Shown one piece after another: positions 1,297 through 9,715 of a DNA stretch of 9,780 nucleotides; positions within the stretch are counted from its first letter, which is position 1; each line of letters starts with the position of its first letter. A program made the translations under genes and the position numbers. The stretch comes from a virus (Duplodnaviria > Heunggongvirae > Uroviricota > Caudoviricetes), in the IMG/VR virus record IMGVR_UViG_2700989535_000004, positions 1 through 9,780 of that record, one strand, 5' to 3'. The notes below the pieces were generated by a model. The model ran no database searches. It saw only the letters and a program-made list of their open reading frames with translations, and was not told the DNA's origin.

Positions 1297-1332
1297 TGTC
1301 ACTGTGTGTCACTCTCCGTCACGGTATGTCAC
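1297..1332. repeat. Four (T/C)GTCAC motifs at exact 10-bp phasing; candidate protein-binding array at the left island edge
   Basis: tgtcac at 1297-1302, tgtcac at 1307-1312, cgtcac at 1317-1322, tgtcac at 1327-1332. The array lies immediately downstream of the last island ORF (stop at 1339). Confidence 0.8.
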
Positions 1333-1338
1333 CACAAG

Positions 1339-1620
1339 TTAACGTCGTAACCGTTCCGGCTTCTTCCAGTGGTAAGTAATTTTTTCTTTCTCTTGGTACA
1401 TCTGCACGCGGCGACGGTACGACAACATCTCCAGAACTCTGGTGCGTATGTTGCGCATATCCACGCCGTTAAGCTCGATACCGTCACGGCGCATCACCTC
1501 AGCAACAACACGCACATAATTTTCAGCGGTCACGCTGTCCGGCTGCGTGGCCTGTTCGTCAGCCTGCTGGCTGATTCCGGTAACGCGGCGGATTAATCGC
1601 AGTATTTCGGCTTCTGTCAT
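1339..1620 (-). CDS. Hypothetical protein (93 aa), last gene of the packaging operon
   Basis: ATG at 1618-1620 preceded by TGGGGGCACA (G-rich SD, 4-nt spacer); 73-bp gap after the Nu1-like gene. No recognisable similarity to lambda gpA, gpW or gpFII. Confidence 0.5.
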   Translation of the reverse strand: MTEAEILRLIRRVTGISQQADEQATQPDSVTAENYVRVVAEVMRRDGIELNGVDMRNIRTRVLEMLSYRRRVQMYQEKEKITYHWKKPERLRR

Positions 1621-1693
1621 TGTGCCCCCATCGCTCTGATAGCCTGGTGTCGTCAGGTCCTTCCTGGAATTATGGCCCGTTACGGGGCGGCGG

Positions 1694-2236
1694 TTACTCG
1701 CCTTTGTTCTGTAGCAACTTCTCAGGCGCGCTTCCGGTAGTTTCCATCAGGTAATCAGCCAGTATCTGTGGCAGGTTTTCGTCAAGTCTTGCACATGCGT
1801 TACATGCTTTGGCTATTTCCCTTTTTAGTTCATCCAGCATATACGGCCTTATATCGGGAAAGCGCCTTTGCATTGTGAGCGGGAGGCTGTCCATGATTGA
1901 TGAAATCTGACTCGCTAGTTTTGAAATCGCGTAGATGCAAAACTTTGTATCAATCACCTCGCCGCGTTCGCGCTCGTTTTTAAGTTCCTGCGCTTCCGCC
2001 TGGGCCGTCATTAATCTGATTCTTACGCGTAAAAGTTCATCATCATCAATCTCGCCTTTGTCGTTTGTAAGCTGGTTAATTGCATTGTTAACCCTATTGT
2101 CTATCACGCTAGCAACATCATAAAACGCCTCACGGCCTTTACGCTCAACGGGAGTTACTCCCCACTTGTCGAACGCTGTCGCACTTACGCGGCAGCTTTG
2201 CGCCATAGTTTTTTTGTTCATCAGGTGCGATTTCAT
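1694..2236 (-). CDS. Terminase small subunit, lambda Nu1 family
   Basis: Translation aligns along its length with lambda Nu1 as recalled (e.g. RLMTAQAEAQELKNERERGEVIDTKFCIYAISKLASQISSIMDSLPLTMQRRFP vs lambda RLTRAQADAQELKNARDSAEVVETAFCTFVLSRIAGEIASILDGLPLSVQRRFP). About 180 aa like Nu1. Start taken at ATG 2234-2236 (SD GTGGGGA, 5-nt spacer); ATG 2219-2221 (MNKK.., aligning with lambda MEVNKK) and GTG 2246-2248 are alternatives. Sits 134 bp downstream of cosN. Confidence 0.85.
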   Translation of the reverse strand: MKSHLMNKKTMAQSCRVSATAFDKWGVTPVERKGREAFYDVASVIDNRVNNAINQLTNDKGEIDDDELLRVRIRLMTAQAEAQELKNERERGEVIDTKFCIYAISKLASQISSIMDSLPLTMQRRFPDIRPYMLDELKREIAKACNACARLDENLPQILADYLMETTGSAPEKLLQNKGE

Positions 2237-2261
2237 CAATATCCCCACTTAGTTAAGGTTT

Positions 2262-2420
2262 CAGGTTGGTGTGTTGGTGTTATCTTTCCCTTTTTATTCA
2301 TAGAGATAGAGCGAAAAACAAAACCACCACCACCAACCCGAAAAGGCTCATAAATAGCGAAAATCCGCAAGGTCGCCGCCCCGTAGCCTGCCGGATCGCC
2401 GGAAAGGACCCGCCAGCCAG
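2262..2420 (-). other. Lambda-type cos site: cosQ-like flank (2382-2420), cosN (2370-2381) and a divergent cosB-like region (2262-2369)
   Basis: The minus strand reads CTGGCTGGCGGGTCCTTTCCGGCGATCCGGCAGGCTACG|GGGCGGCGACCT|TGCGGATTTTCGCTATTTATGA. The 12-nt block is the lambda cohesive end, and both flanks match the lambda right-end and left-end sequences as I recall them with only a few substitutions. After TATTTATGA the sequence diverges; the cosB-like region carries GGTTGGTGTGTTGGTG (2265-2280) and its inverted partner CCACCACCACCAACC (2324-2338) around an AT-rich core. Confidence 0.8.
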
Positions 2421-2437
2421 AACGGGCCCTAATTTCA

Positions 2438-2821
2438 TCAACCAATCAGCTTATAGCGACCATCCCGTGCATTGCGACGTACACGCTCAATCTTGAGGCA
2501 TAGCGCCGCATCTGGCTTTTTGGGGACAGGTACGCGGCAATATTCAGAAGCTCGAGGAATATTGTTTATCCAGTCGATCACTTCACTTAAATACCAGGCT
2601 TTACGCCCTTCCGTAACCTGTACGCGTTCGGGGAACTCTCCACGAGCCTCAAGGTTTAGCAATGTGCGACGGCTAAGGGTAGTAAGTTCCATCACCTGAT
2701 TCATATCAACAAGGCGTTCACTTAAACGCATTTTGTCAGCAATAGCCTTTAATTCCTCTACTGCTGGATCCGGATACATCATTTCGGCAATTGGCTTAAG
2801 GTCATTGTAATGATTCTGCAT
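2438..2821 (-). CDS. AlpA/Xis-family (HTH_17-like) DNA-binding protein, 127 aa
   Basis: ATG at 2819-2821 with SD AAGGGGGA (4-nt spacer). Central segment MELTTLSRRTLLNLEARGEFPERVQVTEGRKAWYLSEVIDWI has the AlpA/excisionase-type HTH pattern, with about 40 extra residues at the N-terminus and about 40 at the C-terminus. The stop lies directly next to cosQ. Confidence 0.6.
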   Translation of the reverse strand: MQNHYNDLKPIAEMMYPDPAVEELKAIADKMRLSERLVDMNQVMELTTLSRRTLLNLEARGEFPERVQVTEGRKAWYLSEVIDWINNIPRASEYCRVPVPKKPDAALCLKIERVRRNARDGRYKLIG

Positions 2822-2832
2822 TGTATCCCCCT

Positions 2833-3174
2833 TTACACACGAGCCAGCGGCTGAACAGAAATACCTGAGCCAACAAACGCGGCAACCTTTGCCGACAGTT
2901 CTCTTACAGACTCAGGCCAGTTCAGAGCATCAACATTTAAAACACCTGTCTTATAAACCTGTGCCTGTGTTTTTTTCGCTGTGTCGATTTGTACAGCGGA
3001 AACATAAACCGCTTTGCCTGCGCTCGTTCCATCCCATACCACTAGCGCACCAGTTGCATCTTCCTGCATCAGTGGCGTAAACGCAGGTATTACCCCTTTA
3101 TTGGCTGAAAATATCCCCAGCGTAGTAACCAGTGCTTCAGTGCCAGACATGAGTTCAGTGTAATGAGTAGCCAT
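2833..3174 (-). CDS. Head decoration protein, lambda gpD family
   Basis: 113 aa. Shares with lambda gpD as recalled: TPLM, LV(V/A)WDGT, YK(T/S)G, WPE and AF(V/A)G(S/T)(G/A)IS in the same order and spacing. ATG at 3172-3174 with SD AAGGGGGAG; starts 9 nt after the capsid gene stop. Confidence 0.85.
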   Translation of the reverse strand: MATHYTELMSGTEALVTTLGIFSANKGVIPAFTPLMQEDATGALVVWDGTSAGKAVYVSAVQIDTAKKTQAQVYKTGVLNVDALNWPESVRELSAKVAAFVGSGISVQPLARV

Positions 3175-3183
3175 TGCTCCCCC

Positions 3184-4230
3184 TTAGCCAATGCGAACGG
3201 TAACAAAACGATTGATGCGGGCCGGTATTGGCTGTGGTGCAGAGTGCGTTTGTACGTACTCAATAGCCGGATCACCAGGCACAATATAGTTTTTCGGTGC
3301 AAGTTCGGCTTTAGTCAGCCCCATTCGGGTTAGCTCCGGATCCTGAATACCGCCATAGGCGACAATCCCCTGAAGAGCCGTATTGCCAAGCACCATCAAA
3401 TCAGGATCAAGGAAATGTTTTTCAGTTCCGTCCTCGTCGGTATAACGTCCGCTGTAAACAACAATCGCAACATCGCCCATATACCCTTTAAAACTCACCG
3501 AATCACCAAGGTCTTTAAGGGCCGTTTCCAGTTCGGAATTAGAACCACGGCGGGTATCCAGAGCCTCTTTTATCGCTCTGAATGAACGGTATTTCTTCCA
3601 TACATTACCGCCCATAATGATGATATTAGTGACGCCCTCACTAAATTCTGCGTAGCTCTCAATATCATCATTTGGATCAAAAGTTTCTTTATCCTTACCT
3701 GACCACTCAGCACCGCCAGACTGCGTGATAATATTTTGTGGTTTTATATTCCAGTCCAGTTCATAACGTTCAATACCATCGCCCTCAATGATATTTTTCC
3801 CCGTTGTGATTGCCTGAACAGCAAGCCATTCAATACGTGCACGTATAGCTTTAGCCTGATTTACAATCGCCTGTTTAACTTTAATATTACGCGCCCCAAA
3901 AGCATTGTATTGTTCAGGTGATACACCAGCAGGGCGCACAGCTAACTTATTTGGATCAATGCTGCTTTTCGGTTTCATATAGCCAGGGCGAATTGTTTTT
4001 GATTCGTATCCCTCATCTCGTGAAACTTTACTGCCCACCATAGGAGAGCAAAACGCCGCGATCGGGATATTTGGATCGTCGATCGTATCAAGAATAATGT
4101 CTCTCGATTCAAACATTACCGAGCGAGTGAAAAACAAACTGGTAAACAACGCATTTAATTTTTTTTGCACATCTTCAGCATTAGCCATCTGCACAAGCTG
4201 TGTAGGCGAATATAAATCAACCATACTCAT
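3184..4230 (-). CDS. Major capsid protein, lambda gpE family
   Basis: Strong colinear similarity to lambda gpE as recalled (ITQSGGAEWSGKDKETFDPNDDIESYA.., DTRRGSNSELETALKDLG, GDVAIVVYSG, MVLGNT, with an MSM start like gpE). 348 aa from ATG 4228-4230 (SD AAAGAGG directly upstream); ATG 4222-4224 has better SD spacing. The six-frame ORF runs on to 4311 but that extension has no gpE counterpart. Confidence 0.9.
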   Translation of the reverse strand: MSMVDLYSPTQLVQMANAEDVQKKLNALFTSLFFTRSVMFESRDIILDTIDDPNIPIAAFCSPMVGSKVSRDEGYESKTIRPGYMKPKSSIDPNKLAVRPAGVSPEQYNAFGARNIKVKQAIVNQAKAIRARIEWLAVQAITTGKNIIEGDGIERYELDWNIKPQNIITQSGGAEWSGKDKETFDPNDDIESYAEFSEGVTNIIIMGGNVWKKYRSFRAIKEALDTRRGSNSELETALKDLGDSVSFKGYMGDVAIVVYSGRYTDEDGTEKHFLDPDLMVLGNTALQGIVAYGGIQDPELTRMGLTKAELAPKNYIVPGDPAIEYVQTHSAPQPIPARINRFVTVRIG

Positions 4231-4393
4231 CCTCTTTACATTCATTACAAATAATTGTGAATATATTCTATTACCGATGTCTGCTATGCGAATACATGCA
4301 ACCAAGTGCAATGTTGTATAAAATATGCCGTGACAACTTCAGTGCTGATAATTCGTGTTAATGTATTTACTTCCTTTGGTCGGGATTTATGTA

Positions 4394-4435
4394 GCATGCC
4401 GGAAAATCTATTTTTTTCCGGCATCTTTTTGTTTG
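4394..4435 (+). terminator. Stem-loop (11-bp stem) with a T-tract on the plus strand; terminator-like element between the SSB and capsid genes
   Basis: ATGCCGGAAAA (4396-4406) pairs with TTTTCCGGCAT (4414-4424), followed by CTTTTTGTTTG. The U-tract geometry is on the plus strand; on the coding minus strand the hairpin is preceded by an A-tract instead. Lies 16 bp beyond the SSB stop. Confidence 0.4.
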
Positions 4436-4441
4436 CAGAAT

Positions 4442-4864
4442 TTAAAACGGTATATTATCGCCGTACGGATCATCATTCCCCGACTGTTGTTTTGCCCTGT
4501 TCAGTGCGTCAGTGGCCTGCCCCTGCTGACCTTTTTTGCCGCCCGGTCGCGCCGTTCGCGCACTGATTACGCTGTCTGCGATAACCTGCCAGCCCCGCCG
4601 CGTTTCGCCGTTCTGGCCTGTCCACTGGCTTACCTGCATGTTACCCGCCACGCTCAGGAGTTCACCCTTGCGGTGCTTTGCCAGTGCTTCGGCCTGTCTG
4701 CCAAACGCCAGGACGGATAACCACATCGTCGCCGTTCCGTCATCTGCCTGGCTGCACGGAAGTGGGACCGCCATACTCGCCATCGTCATTTGTGTACCCT
4801 TGCTGGTGGTCTTTAACTGCGGGTCAGCCACCAGCCGCCCGTAAGCCGCTATCTGTGCTGTCAT
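4442..4864 (-). CDS. ssb: Single-stranded DNA-binding protein (SSB)
   Basis: 140 aa with an OB-fold-like N-terminal region (IAAYGRLVADPQ.., WLSVLAFGRQAEALAKHRKGELLSVAGNMQVSQWTGQNGETRRGWQVIADSV), a Gly/Gln-rich linker and an acidic tail ending DNIPF (compare SSB DDDIPF). Its ATG (4862-4864) overlaps the upstream stop as ATGA. Confidence 0.85.
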   Translation of the reverse strand: MTAQIAAYGRLVADPQLKTTSKGTQMTMASMAVPLPCSQADDGTATMWLSVLAFGRQAEALAKHRKGELLSVAGNMQVSQWTGQNGETRRGWQVIADSVISARTARPGGKKGQQGQATDALNRAKQQSGNDDPYGDNIPF

Positions 4865-5113: not shown

Positions 5114-5316
5114 CCCCACTACCCCCCACTTTTTCGCCTCACTTTTTAAGCTCCCCACATGATTTCCAACCTTGTTTTTTTGTGATTCTAATATGTTGTT
5201 TTTCAATGTGTTTTTTATTCCTCACTTTTGAGCCTATATACAGATTGAAAAGTGAGGGGCGCGGTTGCTTTTTGTTCAGTTCCTGCTATCCCCTCACTTT
5301 TGCGCCTCACTTTTTA
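5114..5316. repeat. Iteron array flanking an AT-rich core: putative replication origin
   Basis: CC(C/T)CACTTTT(T) copies at 5124-5134, 5137-5147, 5219-5229, 5292-5301 and 5304-5315; partial copies at 5114-5120 and 5153-5160; one inverted copy (AAAAGTGAGGGG, 5247-5258). A T-rich core lies at 5161-5217. The array starts at the stop codon of the replicase gene. Confidence 0.65.
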
Positions 5317-6729
5317 CAGTGGGCGCACATCATCACCGTCAATAGCGATAACGCCGTCTCTTTCCAGCTTGTACAGCCAGCGCCGGAAGTTTTTCATCTC
5401 ATACCCCAGCTTTTTCATATCATCGCGCAACAACGGGATAGTGCATTTATCGCCGCGCTGTGTGCGTGACCGGATACAGCCCCATAGTGCGGCGTGATTC
5501 TCCGTCTTGTTTCCGGCCTCCTCGATGCGCTCCAGTTCAACGGGTGGGCGCGGCTTATCCACAACCACCAGCGACGTGATTAACTCCTTGTCAGCGTCGG
5601 TAAAAAGCTCCACCACACGTAAATCATATGCAGCCTCTTTCAGTTCCTCCGCGTCCTTCATTTTGGTGCAGGAGATAACCAGGGCCTCACTGTCCGCGCC
5701 TTCGCGGCGGATCCGGTACTCAGCGTCCAGAGATGCACGAAATGCACTGGAACCACGCGCCCCTTTTGTTTCATCCTTGCCGGAATGGTGAACCACCAGC
5801 ACCGTGGCCCCTGTGCGTCGTTTCAGTTCGTCACATCCACGGATAAACGCCCCCATATCCCGCGCGTCATTTTCATCATTACCGCCAAAGCAACGCGCCA
5901 GCGTATCCAGAATAATCATGCGTACCGGTTTACCCGTTTCCCGTTCAACCTGGCGGGATGCGATAACCATTTCATCAACATCAAACTGGGCTGCAGGAAA
6001 AATCGGGCGGGTTACCAGGTACAGATTTTTCACCCGTTCATCATTAACGATTTCCCATGCCTTGATACGGCGGGGGACACCAATGCCACCTTCACCGACA
6101 ACATACATCACCGAACCATGCGCCACCCTGCGACCTCCCCAGTGGCGACCCGTGGCAACATGACACGCCCAGGAACACGCGAGGAACGATTTATAGGAAC
6201 CGCTCGCGCCGTATGTGCTGCACAATGAATTAGCCGGAATCACGCCCTTAACGACATAATCAAGCTGTGTGTCGTACCCTGCAGATCCAATGCTCATTGG
6301 TAGCGTGGTTTTTCGCTGACTGTATTGCTCGTCAGTAAGTATTTCCCCGCGCTCTGCCTGTTCGCGGATCCGTTGCAGGTAGTCGTGCCAGTTCTCCAGC
6401 TTCTGACTGTGCATTCCCTCAGGGTAATAATTCGCATCCCGTACACCTGCCGCCGCCAGCTTTTGCCCGATGGCATTAATATTTGACGGCTTGATGTGGC
6501 CTGCCTTGTACAGTCGGACACAATAGCGACCATCGTCGATAATTTTCAGGCCTGCCAGTTCGTCAAGCTGGCTGTCTCCCAGCCATACAGGCGGAACATT
6601 GTCGCCAGCAAGTCGCCCGTCCTGCTCCTGCCATTGTTTCGCGTGCGCCCAGGCATCACTACCCGCAAAAATAATGACTTCGGTCATTTTGTCGTAAGGC
6701 TGTTTTTTTAAGTTCGGTGCGCTTTTCAT
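5314..6729 (-). CDS. Replication initiator, primase/helicase type, with RepA-like AAA_25 ATPase core
   Basis: 471 aa. Walker A-like GASGSYKSFLA (Tyr where Gly is usual), Walker B-like RMIILDT and a VLVVHHSGKDE motif typical of RepA/AAA_25 helicases. The N-terminal 170 aa may be a degenerate Toprim (EVIIFAGSDAW..LKIIDDG) and the C-terminal 100 aa a DNA-binding domain. ATG at 6727-6729 (SD AGGGG, 6-nt spacer) overlaps the upstream stop as ATGA. Confidence 0.8.
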   Translation of the reverse strand: MKSAPNLKKQPYDKMTEVIIFAGSDAWAHAKQWQEQDGRLAGDNVPPVWLGDSQLDELAGLKIIDDGRYCVRLYKAGHIKPSNINAIGQKLAAAGVRDANYYPEGMHSQKLENWHDYLQRIREQAERGEILTDEQYSQRKTTLPMSIGSAGYDTQLDYVVKGVIPANSLCSTYGASGSYKSFLACSWACHVATGRHWGGRRVAHGSVMYVVGEGGIGVPRRIKAWEIVNDERVKNLYLVTRPIFPAAQFDVDEMVIASRQVERETGKPVRMIILDTLARCFGGNDENDARDMGAFIRGCDELKRRTGATVLVVHHSGKDETKGARGSSAFRASLDAEYRIRREGADSEALVISCTKMKDAEELKEAAYDLRVVELFTDADKELITSLVVVDKPRPPVELERIEEAGNKTENHAALWGCIRSRTQRGDKCTIPLLRDDMKKLGYEMKNFRRWLYKLERDGVIAIDGDDVRPL

Positions 6730-7919: not shown

Positions 7920-8017
7920 AGCAGCCTCGATAATCTTGCTATCGTTGGTGGTTAGACGCCCCGTATGTGTTTCCGGCACTGCGGGGCGTTGCTCTTTGTA
8001 TTTCAACAATTCTTTTG

Positions 8018-8096
8018 GTGTGTTTCATGTTATGAGCGCATGAAACACACGTCAAGGCTTTTTGTATTTCTTTTTTTGTGTATACTGAAACACACC
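8018..8096. promoter_or_regulatory. Divergent promoter/operator region: perfect 12-bp inverted repeat overlapping a minus-strand sigma70-like promoter, plus a third half-site at the plus-strand promoter
   Basis: GTGTGTTTCATG (8018-8029), 9-bp spacer, CATGAAACACAC (8039-8050). Minus-strand promoter: -35 TTGACG (revcomp of 8050-8055), 17-bp spacer, -10 TAACAT (revcomp of 8027-8032). Third half-site TGAAACACAC at 8086-8095 just downstream of a plus-strand -10-like TATACT (8081-8086). A fourth GTGTTTC lies at 7967-7973 inside a leader hairpin (ACGCCCCG 7956-7963 / CGGGGCGT 7982-7989). Confidence 0.5.
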
Positions 8097-8116
8097 GATG
8101 ATTAGGAGTTTCAGAA

Positions 8117-8422
8117 ATGGCAACGGCTAACAAAAACGCAAAATCACAACTGACAACTGTCAGAGTCCCACTAGATGTTATGCAAGGGATGGAATCCGTT
8201 AAGCTGGACGGCGAAAGCAATGCCGGATTTATCGTAACCGCCATGCGCGGAGAAATAGCCCGCCGCCAAGCAGAAGGCAGCGGAGAAAATCCCCTTGTGT
8301 CGTCACTGGATGCCCTGGCTAAGGTCGAACAAATCGGCATCAAAGCAGCGGAAGAAATCGGGCAGCTTGTCACCGTTGCACGCGAAGAACTCCAGCGTCG
8401 CAAGACCAAAGAACCAGAGTAA
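8117..8422 (+). CDS. Putative ribbon-helix-helix (RHH) DNA-binding protein, 101 aa; candidate island repressor
   Basis: Strong SD (TAGGAG, 8-nt spacer). N-terminal segment QLTTVRVPLDVMQGMESVKLDGESNAGFIVTAMRGEIARR fits a beta-strand/helix/helix RHH pattern. Operator-like repeats lie just upstream and an intrinsic terminator downstream on the same strand. Composition is A/E/K-rich, unlike the Ser/Arg/Cys-rich opposite-strand reading. Confidence 0.6.
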   Translation: MATANKNAKSQLTTVRVPLDVMQGMESVKLDGESNAGFIVTAMRGEIARRQAEGSGENPLVSSLDALAKVEQIGIKAAEEIGQLVTVAREELQRRKTKEPE

Positions 8423-8479
8423 TCACCATCAGCGCCGTGGTGTAAGGTATTACGGCGCATTGCTATGCAGGACAACACA

Positions 8480-8653
8480 ATGACCGATAAAGAATTGACC
8501 AAAACATTATCACCGGCACGGAAAAGACGGCGCAGAAAGATAGAGCATGAATCAGAAAGATTCGCGCCATGTGCTTTTGCTCTTGAGAAATTCCTTAAAG
8601 AGCACAGGAAAAAGCTCTCGTTGCAAACCTTGGAACGAACCAAATCTGACTGA
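8480..8653 (+). CDS. Small basic protein (57 aa), co-transcribed with the RHH gene
   Basis: ATG at 8480 with AGGA 7 nt upstream; the ORF-track start at 8465 has no SD. Contains an RKRRRRK block. Followed 80 bp later by an intrinsic terminator. Confidence 0.4.
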   Translation: MTDKELTKTLSPARKRRRRKIEHESERFAPCAFALEKFLKEHRKKLSLQTLERTKSD

Positions 8654-8732
8654 TCACATTGCCCACCAGCCGCAAATGTGGCATTGTTGGTGATGCTCAT
8701 GCGTTGGGGATAACGTGTAGCTTGTGTCGAGG

Positions 8733-8761
8733 GGCCACCGTAGCGGGTGGCCTTTGTTTTG
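8733..8761 (+). terminator. Rho-independent terminator of the plus-strand cassette
   Basis: GGCCACC (8733-8739), loop gtagcg, GGTGGCC (8746-8752), then TTTGTTTTG. The U-tract is on the plus strand only. Confidence 0.6.
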
Positions 8762-8763
8762 CC

Positions 8764-9129
8764 TGTTATCCGGCAATTGTGGCGCTTCGCCACACGGTTG
8801 ATATAATCCCACTGCTCAGATTCATTTTTTGCGCAGTAGGTTAATTGTTCACAAAGGCGCTCCGGCAACGGGGCGCTTTTTGTTTTTATTAGTTTGTAGA
8901 AACCTGACTCAGAGATAATGCTCATATTCTGATTGCCGTCAGGGGTGTAAGTTAAATTTACTCCCTTTTTATCATCAAACATCTGCAACGCTCTGGCGTT
9001 AACAATATTGGTTTCACTCCCTCCAGTAAGGCCGGAAATAACCGGAATAATTTCGGCAAAATTTTGCAGATTCTGTTTTTCAGGACGAACGAAGCCCCGC
9101 CCTTGTTCGGGAGAATATCCAGTATTCAT
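8764..9129 (-). CDS. Hypothetical protein with a possible Bro-N-like motif; 3' boundary undefined, possibly a truncated remnant
   Basis: ATG at 9127-9129 with only a weak SD. The segment PDGNQNMSIISESGFYKLIKTKSAP resembles the Bro-N core (GGKQ.MT.INESGLYSLI..S.KP), but the N-terminal Bro-N signature is not evident. The ORF formally continues without a stop to 7939, across the plus-strand terminator, cassette and promoter region; I list only the 5' part, ended at an arbitrary in-frame position. Confidence 0.3.
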
Positions 9130-9181
9130 GGTTAGATCTCTGTATTAGTGGATGGGTGGCGGCTGTGTGCCGCCAGCCTGA

Positions 9182-9370
9182 TTAGTGAACTGCCTCGCAG
9201 CTTTCCTTCCATGCCAGAACTTCGGATAAAGACCAGCCAACGGAACGACCGCCGAGCTTACGCCGTGATGGGAATTGTCCGGTTTTTTCCAGGCGGTACC
9301 GACATGAACGGCTCAGGCCTGTAAGTTGCTGACATTCTTTTTCACGTATAAAGCGATCTGTGCTTAACAC
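9182..9370 (-). CDS. alpA: AlpA-family transcriptional regulator / excision-associated HTH protein (62 aa)
   Basis: DRFIREKECQQLTGLSRSCRYRLEKTGQFPSRRKLGGRSVGWSLSEVLAWKE matches the AlpA/Vis-type HTH. Start taken at GTG 9368-9370, preceded by SD AAGGGGGA (3-nt spacer); the 118-aa ORF-track start at 9538 has no comparable RBS. Confidence 0.75.
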   Translation of the reverse strand: MLSTDRFIREKECQQLTGLSRSCRYRLEKTGQFPSRRKLGGRSVGWSLSEVLAWKESCEAVH

Positions 9371-9403
9371 AATTCCCCCTTTGATATTTCTTAAAGAGTT
9401 ATT

Positions 9404-9450
9404 TGGTGTCCTATTGTGTTGTGGTGCGTCGGATTGTGTCAGGGTGTTTA
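9404..9450. repeat. Five (T/G)GTGT(C/T)-type motifs at 10-bp phasing upstream of alpA
   Basis: TGGTGTC 9404-9410, TTGTGTT 9414-9420, GGTGCGTC 9423-9430, TTGTGTC 9434-9440, GGTGTTT 9444-9450. Confidence 0.7.
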
Positions 9451-9664
9451 TGGAATGGCAAACACTGGCGGCGGTCATTTTACAGAAGTGTGGTAATGAG
9501 AATAAAAACTCTTTTAATTCATTGTGGTGCAAAGGCATAAAATTCTGTTTTTACGCCTTTTTTACATGTTTTTAAGAGTGATTCGCCAATGTACAAAAAG
9601 CCAGTAAAACGACTGAAAATCAACTTTTTAGGGTGTCAGTCAGATGTTAATCAAGTTTGTTCCA

Positions 9665-9715
9665 GATTGTTCGCCGTTGTTCGTCGTGGTGTCTCGTTGT
9701 TTCACGTTGTGTCAG
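9665..9715. repeat. Five tandem 10-bp units ending in (C)GTTGT, with TTGTGTCAG
   Basis: Motifs (G/C)(A/G)T(T/G)GT at 9665, 9675, 9685, 9695 and 9705. The 9-mer TTGTGTCAG occurs at 9707-9715 and at 9434-9442; GGTGTCAG at 9632-9639. Confidence 0.7.

Follow-up and report, generated by a model that had tools for sequence, protein, structure and literature searches.

The window analysed here, the whole stretch of 9,780 nucleotides, is 100% identical to DNA of E. coli KSC1031 and contains most of a satellite of roughly 10 kb that is inserted in the chromosome between smrA and abgR. The minus-strand genes follow the order integrase, alpA, small ORFs, RepA-type helicase, SSB, E-like, D-like, AlpA2, cos, TerS and a 93-aa ORF, which is the Gram-negative PICI layout of Fillol-Salom et al. 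(PMC6092414) and of a study of helper-embedded PICIs, in which integration, Bro, replication and late zones are distinguished (PMC10111431). The features of the locus are as follows:

beyond 9737, minus strand: integrase
9374-9381, minus strand: Shine-Dalgarno sequence AAGGGGGA of alpA
9182-9370, minus strand: canonical alpA, 62 aa, GTG start, beside the integrase end of the island (PF05930, E 1.3e-17; RefSeq coordinates)
between alpA and the RepA-type helicase gene, minus strand: small ORFs, including an Icd-like gene
5314-6729, minus strand: RepA-type helicase
4442-4864, minus strand: SSB
4396-4424: perfect 11-bp inverted repeat (hairpin) that follows SSB and sets the replication genes apart from the capsid operon
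4286-4321, minus strand: array of four hexamers with an exact 10-bp period (TTATAC 4321-4316, TTGCAC 4311-4306, TTGCAT 4301-4296, TCGCAT 4291-4286), the proposed AlpA2 operator
4265-4292, minus strand: P_E, a predicted sigma-70 promoter (TTCGCA, 16-nt spacer, TAGAAT)
3184-4224, minus strand: lambda E-like major capsid gene (PF03864, E 7e-42; RefSeq start 4224)
3178-3185, minus strand: Shine-Dalgarno sequence AAGGGGGA of the D-like gene
2833-3174, minus strand: lambda D-like head decoration gene, in every case the gene immediately preceding AlpA2 (PF02924, E 4.6e-15)
2826-2833, minus strand: Shine-Dalgarno sequence AAGGGGGA of AlpA2
2438-2821, minus strand: AlpA2, a 127-aa AlpA-family winged-HTH protein, ATG start (ORF, Pfam, phrog, RefSeq)
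2564-2716, minus strand: winged-HTH core of AlpA2, residues 36-86
2440-2438, minus strand: stop codon of AlpA2
2411-2399, minus strand: cosQ-like element GGGTCCTTTCCGG (read from the sequence; alignment with the cos of EcCICFT073 and of a lambdoid prophage)
2381-2370, minus strand: cosN, the lambda cohesive-end sequence GGGCGGCGACCT (sequence and the same alignment)
2343-2331 and 2271-2259, minus strand: cosB-like element, a 13-nt inverted repeat (GGTTGGTG...) around an A/T-rich spacer
1694-2236, minus strand: Nu1-like small terminase of the island (TerS), 180 aa (PF07471, E 9e-24; phrog_57)

Directly downstream of the RepA helicase gene, an AT-rich stretch is flanked by iterons of the sequence CCTCACTTTT (AAAAGTGAGG), which are present at 5122-5320 in six or seven copies and in both orientations and are almost certainly the replication origin of the satellite. 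At the other end, the program-called alpA ORF of 118 aa (9182-9538) is over-extended, RefSeq and the AAGGGGGA site both placing the start at the GTG at 9370. A 396-aa minus-strand ORF at 7939-9129 is probably spurious; it has no RefSeq annotation and overlaps an annotated plus-strand gene of the YlcI/YnfO family (8117-8422). The stretch of about 760 bp from the latter gene to alpA (8423-9181) contains neither an annotated gene nor an Rfam match, and the Rfam search of the window returned no RNA family.

A sequence-only reading of this DNA had taken the ORF at 2438-2821 for an AlpA/Xis-like HTH paralog with N- and C-terminal extensions, a description on which Pfam, phrog, RefSeq and the alignment with alpA agree. 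In RefSeq the gene has identical ends in a 100% identical E. coli locus (WP_001179421.1, 'helix-turn-helix transcriptional regulator'); this name is generic, and no paper describing the gene was found. Against the Pfam profile Phage_AlpA (PF05930) the protein scores 34.9 bits (cut-off 21, E 1.4e-8), and its residues 36-85 cover profile positions 2-51 of 51, which places it in the family. It also matches phrog_2790 (E 1.8e-48) and is paralogous to the canonical alpA of the island (35% identity over 63 residues, E 7e-10), whose presence near the right end of the island the same reading had pointed out. Its placing of AlpA2 between the decoration gene and cosQ was likewise correct, with the D-like gene upstream and the cosQ-like element 26 nt past the stop codon, as was its remark that the D-like gene, AlpA2 and alpA share a Shine-Dalgarno sequence: AAGGGGGA occurs exactly three times in the window, where 0.23 occurrences are expected, and none of 200 shuffles reached three.

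Both the N-terminal (residues 1-35) and the C-terminal (residues 87-127) extensions of AlpA2 are kept at full length across the Enterobacteriaceae. The length of 127 aa is retained in Escherichia, Enterobacter, Citrobacter, Klebsiella, Salmonella, Kosakonia, Kluyvera, Pluralibacter, Trabulsiella, Cedecea, Buttiauxella and Scandinavium, and shorter relatives of 112-117 aa are found in Serratia. The suggestion that a profile search might match the extensions to a known domain brought nothing: Pfam and NCBIfam yielded no further domain, and the structure matches do not cover the extensions. The NCBIfam search gave no family for AlpA2, alpA, c1501, orf93 or TerS, and the Phage_Nu1 profile (PF07471), which the neighbouring 180-aa protein matches, does not match AlpA2. 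The AlpA2 gene is present in 398 of 5,426 complete E. coli genomes, and a scan of genome contigs yielded four loci; a tblastn search of 50,697 phage genomes gave no hit at E <= 1e-3 and hence no phage source at that threshold.

The structure of AlpA2 was predicted with AlphaFold2 from an alignment of 69 sequences (mean pLDDT 80.5, pTM 0.53), an earlier prediction from 17 sequences having been unusable (pLDDT 46). In the model, two helices (8-15 and 19-33) form the N-terminal extension and are followed by a predicted winged HTH made up of helices 40-47 and 51-60, a hairpin (67-77) and helix 78-86, after which a proline-rich linker leads to a basic C-terminal helix (105-119); the placement of the extensions relative to the core is uncertain, because the pTM is only 0.53. 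The nearest structures are excisionases (GIsul2 Xis, 8c3t, with 43% identity over the core, and RdfS) and BldC-type proteins. A sequence search of the PDB at E <= 1 returned 8c3t and chance matches only; the Pseudomonas AlpA antiterminator complexes, which a relationship would be expected to bring up provided that the searched set includes them, were not among the matches at that threshold, and a literature search with the code 8C3T returned nothing relevant. AlpA2 forms an AlpA subfamily of its own, set apart by its extensions and by its genomic role.

The genomic setting of this subfamily was surveyed in 80 IMG/VR loci with AlpA2 and in loci from seven other genera (about 90 satellites). In E. 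coli, AlpA2 itself is at least 95% identical, and the DNA downstream of it is of at least three types. About 41 loci have the Nu1-like TerS of the island with GGTGGTGG-type inverted repeats; 8 have a near-lambda Nu1, which is 36% identical to the island TerS; and 29 have no ORF of at least 90 aa within 1.1 kb (L057; for example L042-L045 and L049-L051). In L057, the only terS-less locus whose sequence was read, identity with the window stops between cosQ and cosN, the cohesive ends have an altered sequence and the repeats of cosB resemble those of lambda, which suggests that the terS-less relatives may use the helper TerS directly. The cosB-like repeats of the window are kept together with Nu1-like TerS in Kosakonia, Superficieibacter and Buttiauxella and would, we infer, be bound by the island TerS rather than by AlpA2. 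A comparison set of 80 loci was collected by the D gene of the CFT073 type; AlpA2 is present in none of them, the Nu1-like TerS of the island in 41, RppA in 18 and neither in the remainder. From the two surveys it therefore follows that the packaging segment, made up of cosN, cosB and either terS or rpp, assorts independently of the capsid segment of E, D and the gene after them, X.

Two further observations concern the packaging segment. In the cosB-like region of the window, GGTGGTGGTGG stands at about +47 to +58 relative to the cos nick, and its inverted partner is 59 nt away. The RppA-type cos of EcCICFT073 (L002 2585-2625) carries the oppositely oriented CACCACCACCAC at about +54 to +65, and the repeats that the two packaging systems read may be related but opposite in orientation. 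The 93-aa ORF (1339-1620 in the window, 3374-3655 in L002) belongs to phrog_1561 and has no known domain. Its product comes after terS or rpp in AlpA2-type and CFT073-type satellites alike, with 86% identity, and it seems to be part of the exchangeable packaging segment.

The capsid gene E, the decoration gene D and AlpA2 are contiguous in every surveyed locus, down to an AlpA2 identity of 50% (Serratia, Buttiauxella), and in the E. coli loci this block is preceded by SSB. The genes around it are variable, comprising the integrase, the canonical AlpA, the replication genes and the cos/terS segment. AlpA2 is constant across integrases and across the attachment sites smrA/abgR, the prophage capsid gene E and fis, and is thus not linked to one cognate integrase, as it stays with E-D when integrase, AlpA class and attachment site change. 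The canonical AlpA falls into at least three divergent classes with the recognition helices SRSCRYRLEKTGQFP, SRTTRYELEKKGGFP and ANSTRWKLEKEGKFP, all three occurring in E. coli islands with nearly identical P_E and AlpA2, and the replicase changes between islands from the RepA helicase to a D5-type primase or DUF927. The hexamer array and AlpA2 are separated by less than 1.9 kb and lie within the sole block that never recombines.

P_E is the only minus-strand promoter-like site that a scan found within 1300-4500. The array overlaps its -35 or lies just upstream of it, and is the only TTGCA-N5-7-TTGCA site in the window. Among Escherichia, Kosakonia, Kluyvera, Superficieibacter, Cedecea and a metagenomic relative, the distance between the array and the capsid start codon is constant in surroundings that are otherwise unalignable, and other genera have GC-rich hairpins equivalent to that which follows the SSB gene here. 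In Kosakonia, Kluyvera and Superficieibacter the array consists of TTATAC followed by three TTGCAY units, in Cedecea of two TTGTAC and one TTGCAT, and in the metagenomic relative of TTGCAC, TTATAC and TTGCAT. The hexamers of Serratia, which has five TTAGAC/TTGTGC-type units with a 10-bp period, and of Buttiauxella have drifted, the latter being more degenerate. With respect to P_E, the E. coli hexamers span about -63 to -29, the last unit doubling as a weak -35, and those of Kosakonia, Kluyvera and Superficieibacter about -73 to -38, one turn further out; outside E. coli, the array is followed by a TGn-extended -10, and a -35 is not recognisable. A site at about -73 to -38 is in the position of an activator.

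In a neutral search for three phased 7-mers, shuffling gave p <= 0.013 in four genera; for E. coli (p about 0.24), as for Serratia, Buttiauxella and the metagenomic locus, the same test was not significant. The motif TTRYAY-N4-TTRYAY is present between -140 and -40 of the capsid start in all 86 loci that have AlpA2 and the start of E, with only 10 matches elsewhere in 2.2 Mb, and in none of the 80 E-D loci of the CFT073 type, all without AlpA2 (no match in 1.1 Mb); as the 80 IMG/VR loci are close relatives from E. coli, the contrast of 86/86 with 0/80 amounts to two lineages plus the conservation across genera. The array and the AlpA2 gene are thus co-inherited. The phased TTGCAY pattern alone is not diagnostic across the virosphere: at least 120 stretches of IMG/VR contain three perfect TTGCAY units that repeat every 10 bp, and among those listed five are capsid promoters of AlpA2 satellites (L116, L137, L145, L154 and L211), AlpA2 lying inside the fetched DNA for four of the five, and the others are unrelated contigs. 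Two other functions were considered for this region and rejected. An assignment of the array as a replication origin is contradicted by the iterons that adjoin repA at 5122-5320 and by the persistence of the array with a different replicase, the D5-type primase. As for a helper Q-type antitermination site at P_E, a scan of the coding strand from the promoter to the capsid start turned up nothing terminator-like.

Our favoured reading, to which we give a probability of about one half, is that AlpA2 is a dedicated, module-specific regulator, probably an activating one, of the capsid/late operon of the satellite. It is most likely that AlpA2 switches on the capsid genes and does not direct packaging, because it travels with the capsid genes and not with the packaging site. 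The sequence-only reading had offered a late-gene activator in preference to an excision regulator, which fits the position-fixed phased hexamers at the capsid promoter and their strict co-occurrence with AlpA2. The proposal of an autoregulated activator follows from the position of the array, its linkage to the gene, the variability of AlpA and replicase around them and the precedent of the fold class. BldC binds phased direct repeats, and it and lambda Xis, which are of the same fold class, bind head to tail on direct repeats one helical turn apart. We infer both that the array would be bound by AlpA2 and that binding would activate the operon, the sign of regulation being read only from where the array lies.

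The other role suggested earlier, and the one that the position of the gene makes tempting, is that of a packaging accessory, in which AlpA2 would bind at or near cos, or bind the island or helper TerS, and confer specificity or aid termination at cosQ. AlpA2 adjoins cos, but this does not make it a packaging factor, and we consider this role very improbable and the least supported of the alternatives. An almost invariant AlpA2 precedes three different arrangements of cosN, cosB and terS, and the TerS of the island occurs in 41 loci with the AlpA2-less CFT073-type module; as the packaging and capsid segments assort independently, a reader of cosB or a partner of TerS is not what one would expect AlpA2 to be. 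The spacer between the AlpA2 stop and cosQ shows no conservation between genera, a search around cos found no phased hexamer array, and AlpA2 has no similarity to RppA. The specificity is already accounted for by the cosB inverted repeats that co-vary with the Nu1-like TerS, and the specificity pair of this satellite is this TerS with its own cosB repeats, a segment exchanged separately. The nearest solved structures, GIsul2 Xis (8c3t) and RdfS, would favour a recombination directionality factor, AlpA2 being either the excisionase of the island or an aid to excision of a helper prophage; for the latter, EcCIMP1 provides a parallel with its second AlpA-family gene, AlpA_1, which is dispensable for the island and supports helper excision (PMC11773190). 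AlpA_1, however, differs from AlpA2 in position and strand, and the AlpA2 gene is located about 5.5 kb from the integrase, beside which an alpA is already present. A protein found with differing integrases and attachment sites also suits a factor for one att site poorly, and the sole phased hexamer array of a 21-kb locus, the candidate AlpA2 site, lies at P_E and not at an island end. A role in excision is thus improbable, though less so than one in packaging.

A further alternative separates AlpA2 from the array: AlpA2 would regulate helper or host genes in trans, as an interference function, and the P_E array would be read by the canonical AlpA, a helper CII-like protein or a host factor. 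Satellites commonly encode regulators of helper genes, and cross-talk of AlpA-family proteins between elements has been described (PMC11773190). Against this, the helper late-gene DNA that flanks the helper-embedded copies yielded no phased array, and the recognition helix of the canonical AlpA varies between islands with identical P_E. The motif TTGC-N6-TTGC is also that of lambda CII, and a helper activator could for that reason read P_E, but the array has three to four copies and its hexamer drifts with the AlpA2 lineages (TTGCAC, TTGTAC, TTATAC, TTAGAC). The array could be bound by something other than AlpA2, be it the canonical AlpA, a helper factor or a host factor; the alternative as a whole we regard as unlikely, if somewhat less so than a role in excision.

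Like the PICI AlpA of EcCICFT073, AlpA2 is encoded by a satellite and belongs to PF05930 and to the winged-HTH fold class. The AlpA of EcCICFT073 is a transcriptional activator that acts on its own promoter (PMC6092414); for AlpA2, the only candidate site for autoregulation is the predicted operator at P_E. AlpA2 is twice as long as PICI AlpA and has conserved N- and C-terminal helices, and it lies in the capsid operon and assorts with E-D, not with int. The place of the PICI master AlpA, immediately downstream of the integrase, is held here by the 62-aa alpA. Phage_AlpA is a signature of the integration zone in the helper-embedded PICI study (PMC10111431), and a single AlpA has been stated to be usual for the PICIs of E. 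coli (PMC11773190). EcCIMP1, whose helper is the P22-like phage Kapi1, sets a precedent for a PICI with two AlpA-family genes in different roles (PMC11773190), but its AlpA_1 is short and TorI/Xis-like, is encoded at the far island end on the opposite strand, and belongs to an island that has no capsid genes. The GIsul2 excisionase, RdfS and Xis-type factors are proteins of 55-75 aa that are encoded beside the integrase and have their sites in att arms, whereas AlpA2 has extra helices, is encoded far from int and has its candidate array at a promoter. BldC of Streptomyces (6ama, 6amk) has no detectable sequence relation to AlpA2, carries no extensions and is a chromosomal developmental regulator.

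The model PICI EcCICFT073 has the order E, D, X, cos, Y as here, with a 137-aa protein as X and RppA as Y. The Rpp proteins (RppA/RppC) of EcCICFT073-type PICIs are encoded downstream of cosN in the terS position, AlpA2 upstream of cosQ; unlike Rpp, AlpA2 is not co-inherited with cos, as cosN/cosB/terS varies independently of it, and both the Rpp-type and the Nu1-type packaging segments combine with AlpA2-less modules. AlpA2 and RppA gave no BLASTP alignment at E <= 100, and tblastn with RppA found it in CFT073-type loci only. The 137-aa c1501-type protein of EcCICFT073 occupies the slot of AlpA2, from the D-like gene to cosQ, yet is unrelated to it in sequence, has no HTH and belongs to a module without a hexamer array. 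That c1501 is the 137-aa gene is deduced from gene order; Table 1 of PMC6092414 has a c1501::tetA island as the marked element whose transfer was followed. In EcCICFT073 (L002 1-670), a gene for a PerC-family regulator and a 68-aa ORF precede the capsid gene, with no hexamer array, and in this lineage the same capsid genes may be under another regulator.

As a mechanism for capsid-operon control by AlpA2, we envisage an operon that would run from P_E through the E-like capsid gene and the D-like decoration gene to alpA2, with terS and orf93 expressed by read-through across cos. The scan found no minus-strand promoter-like site between cos and terS, and for this reason TerS and orf93 are probably transcribed by read-through on circular or concatemeric DNA; lambda late transcription likewise reads across cos. 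The three or four TTRYAY hexamers, with a spacing of exactly one helical turn, would be occupied head to tail by several AlpA2 protomers, and this late switch would sit downstream of the canonical AlpA, which controls induction. Since alpA2 is itself part of the proposed operon, positive feedback would result; being at the end of its own operon, it would have to be expressed at a basal level or by read-through before the switch could act. Autorepression is another reading for E. coli, where the last hexamer overlaps the -35. More tentatively, and with rather less confidence than we place in AlpA2 as the capsid-operon regulator, capsid-carrying PICI-type satellites may have a two-tier AlpA cascade, in which the int-linked AlpA would start induction and AlpA2 would polymerise on its array and fire the capsid/terminase operon, with operator, promoter and regulator moving as a portable, self-regulating capsid cassette between satellites that differ in integrase, replicon and packaging site.

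Many Gram-negative PICIs carry capsid and decoration homologues; in EcCICFT073, deletion of these homologues altered neither transfer nor interference (PMC6092414). AlpA2 and its candidate operator would offer an experimental handle with which the cassette could be switched on and off, and with which one could ask what the capsid proteins of satellites do.

Beyond the capsid operon, the window has a second phased array. At 9655-9710 on the minus strand, between the end of int and alpA, there are five GAACAA(C)-type units with a 10-bp period, which could be canonical AlpA sites or integrase arm sites, parallel to the array at the capsid promoter. Many relatives are helper-embedded PICIs that interrupt the capsid gene E of lambda-like prophages (L003, L004, L007, L012, L016, L094-L096 and many more), in which a 3' fragment of E lies 1-2 kb past terS and is followed by the tail genes.
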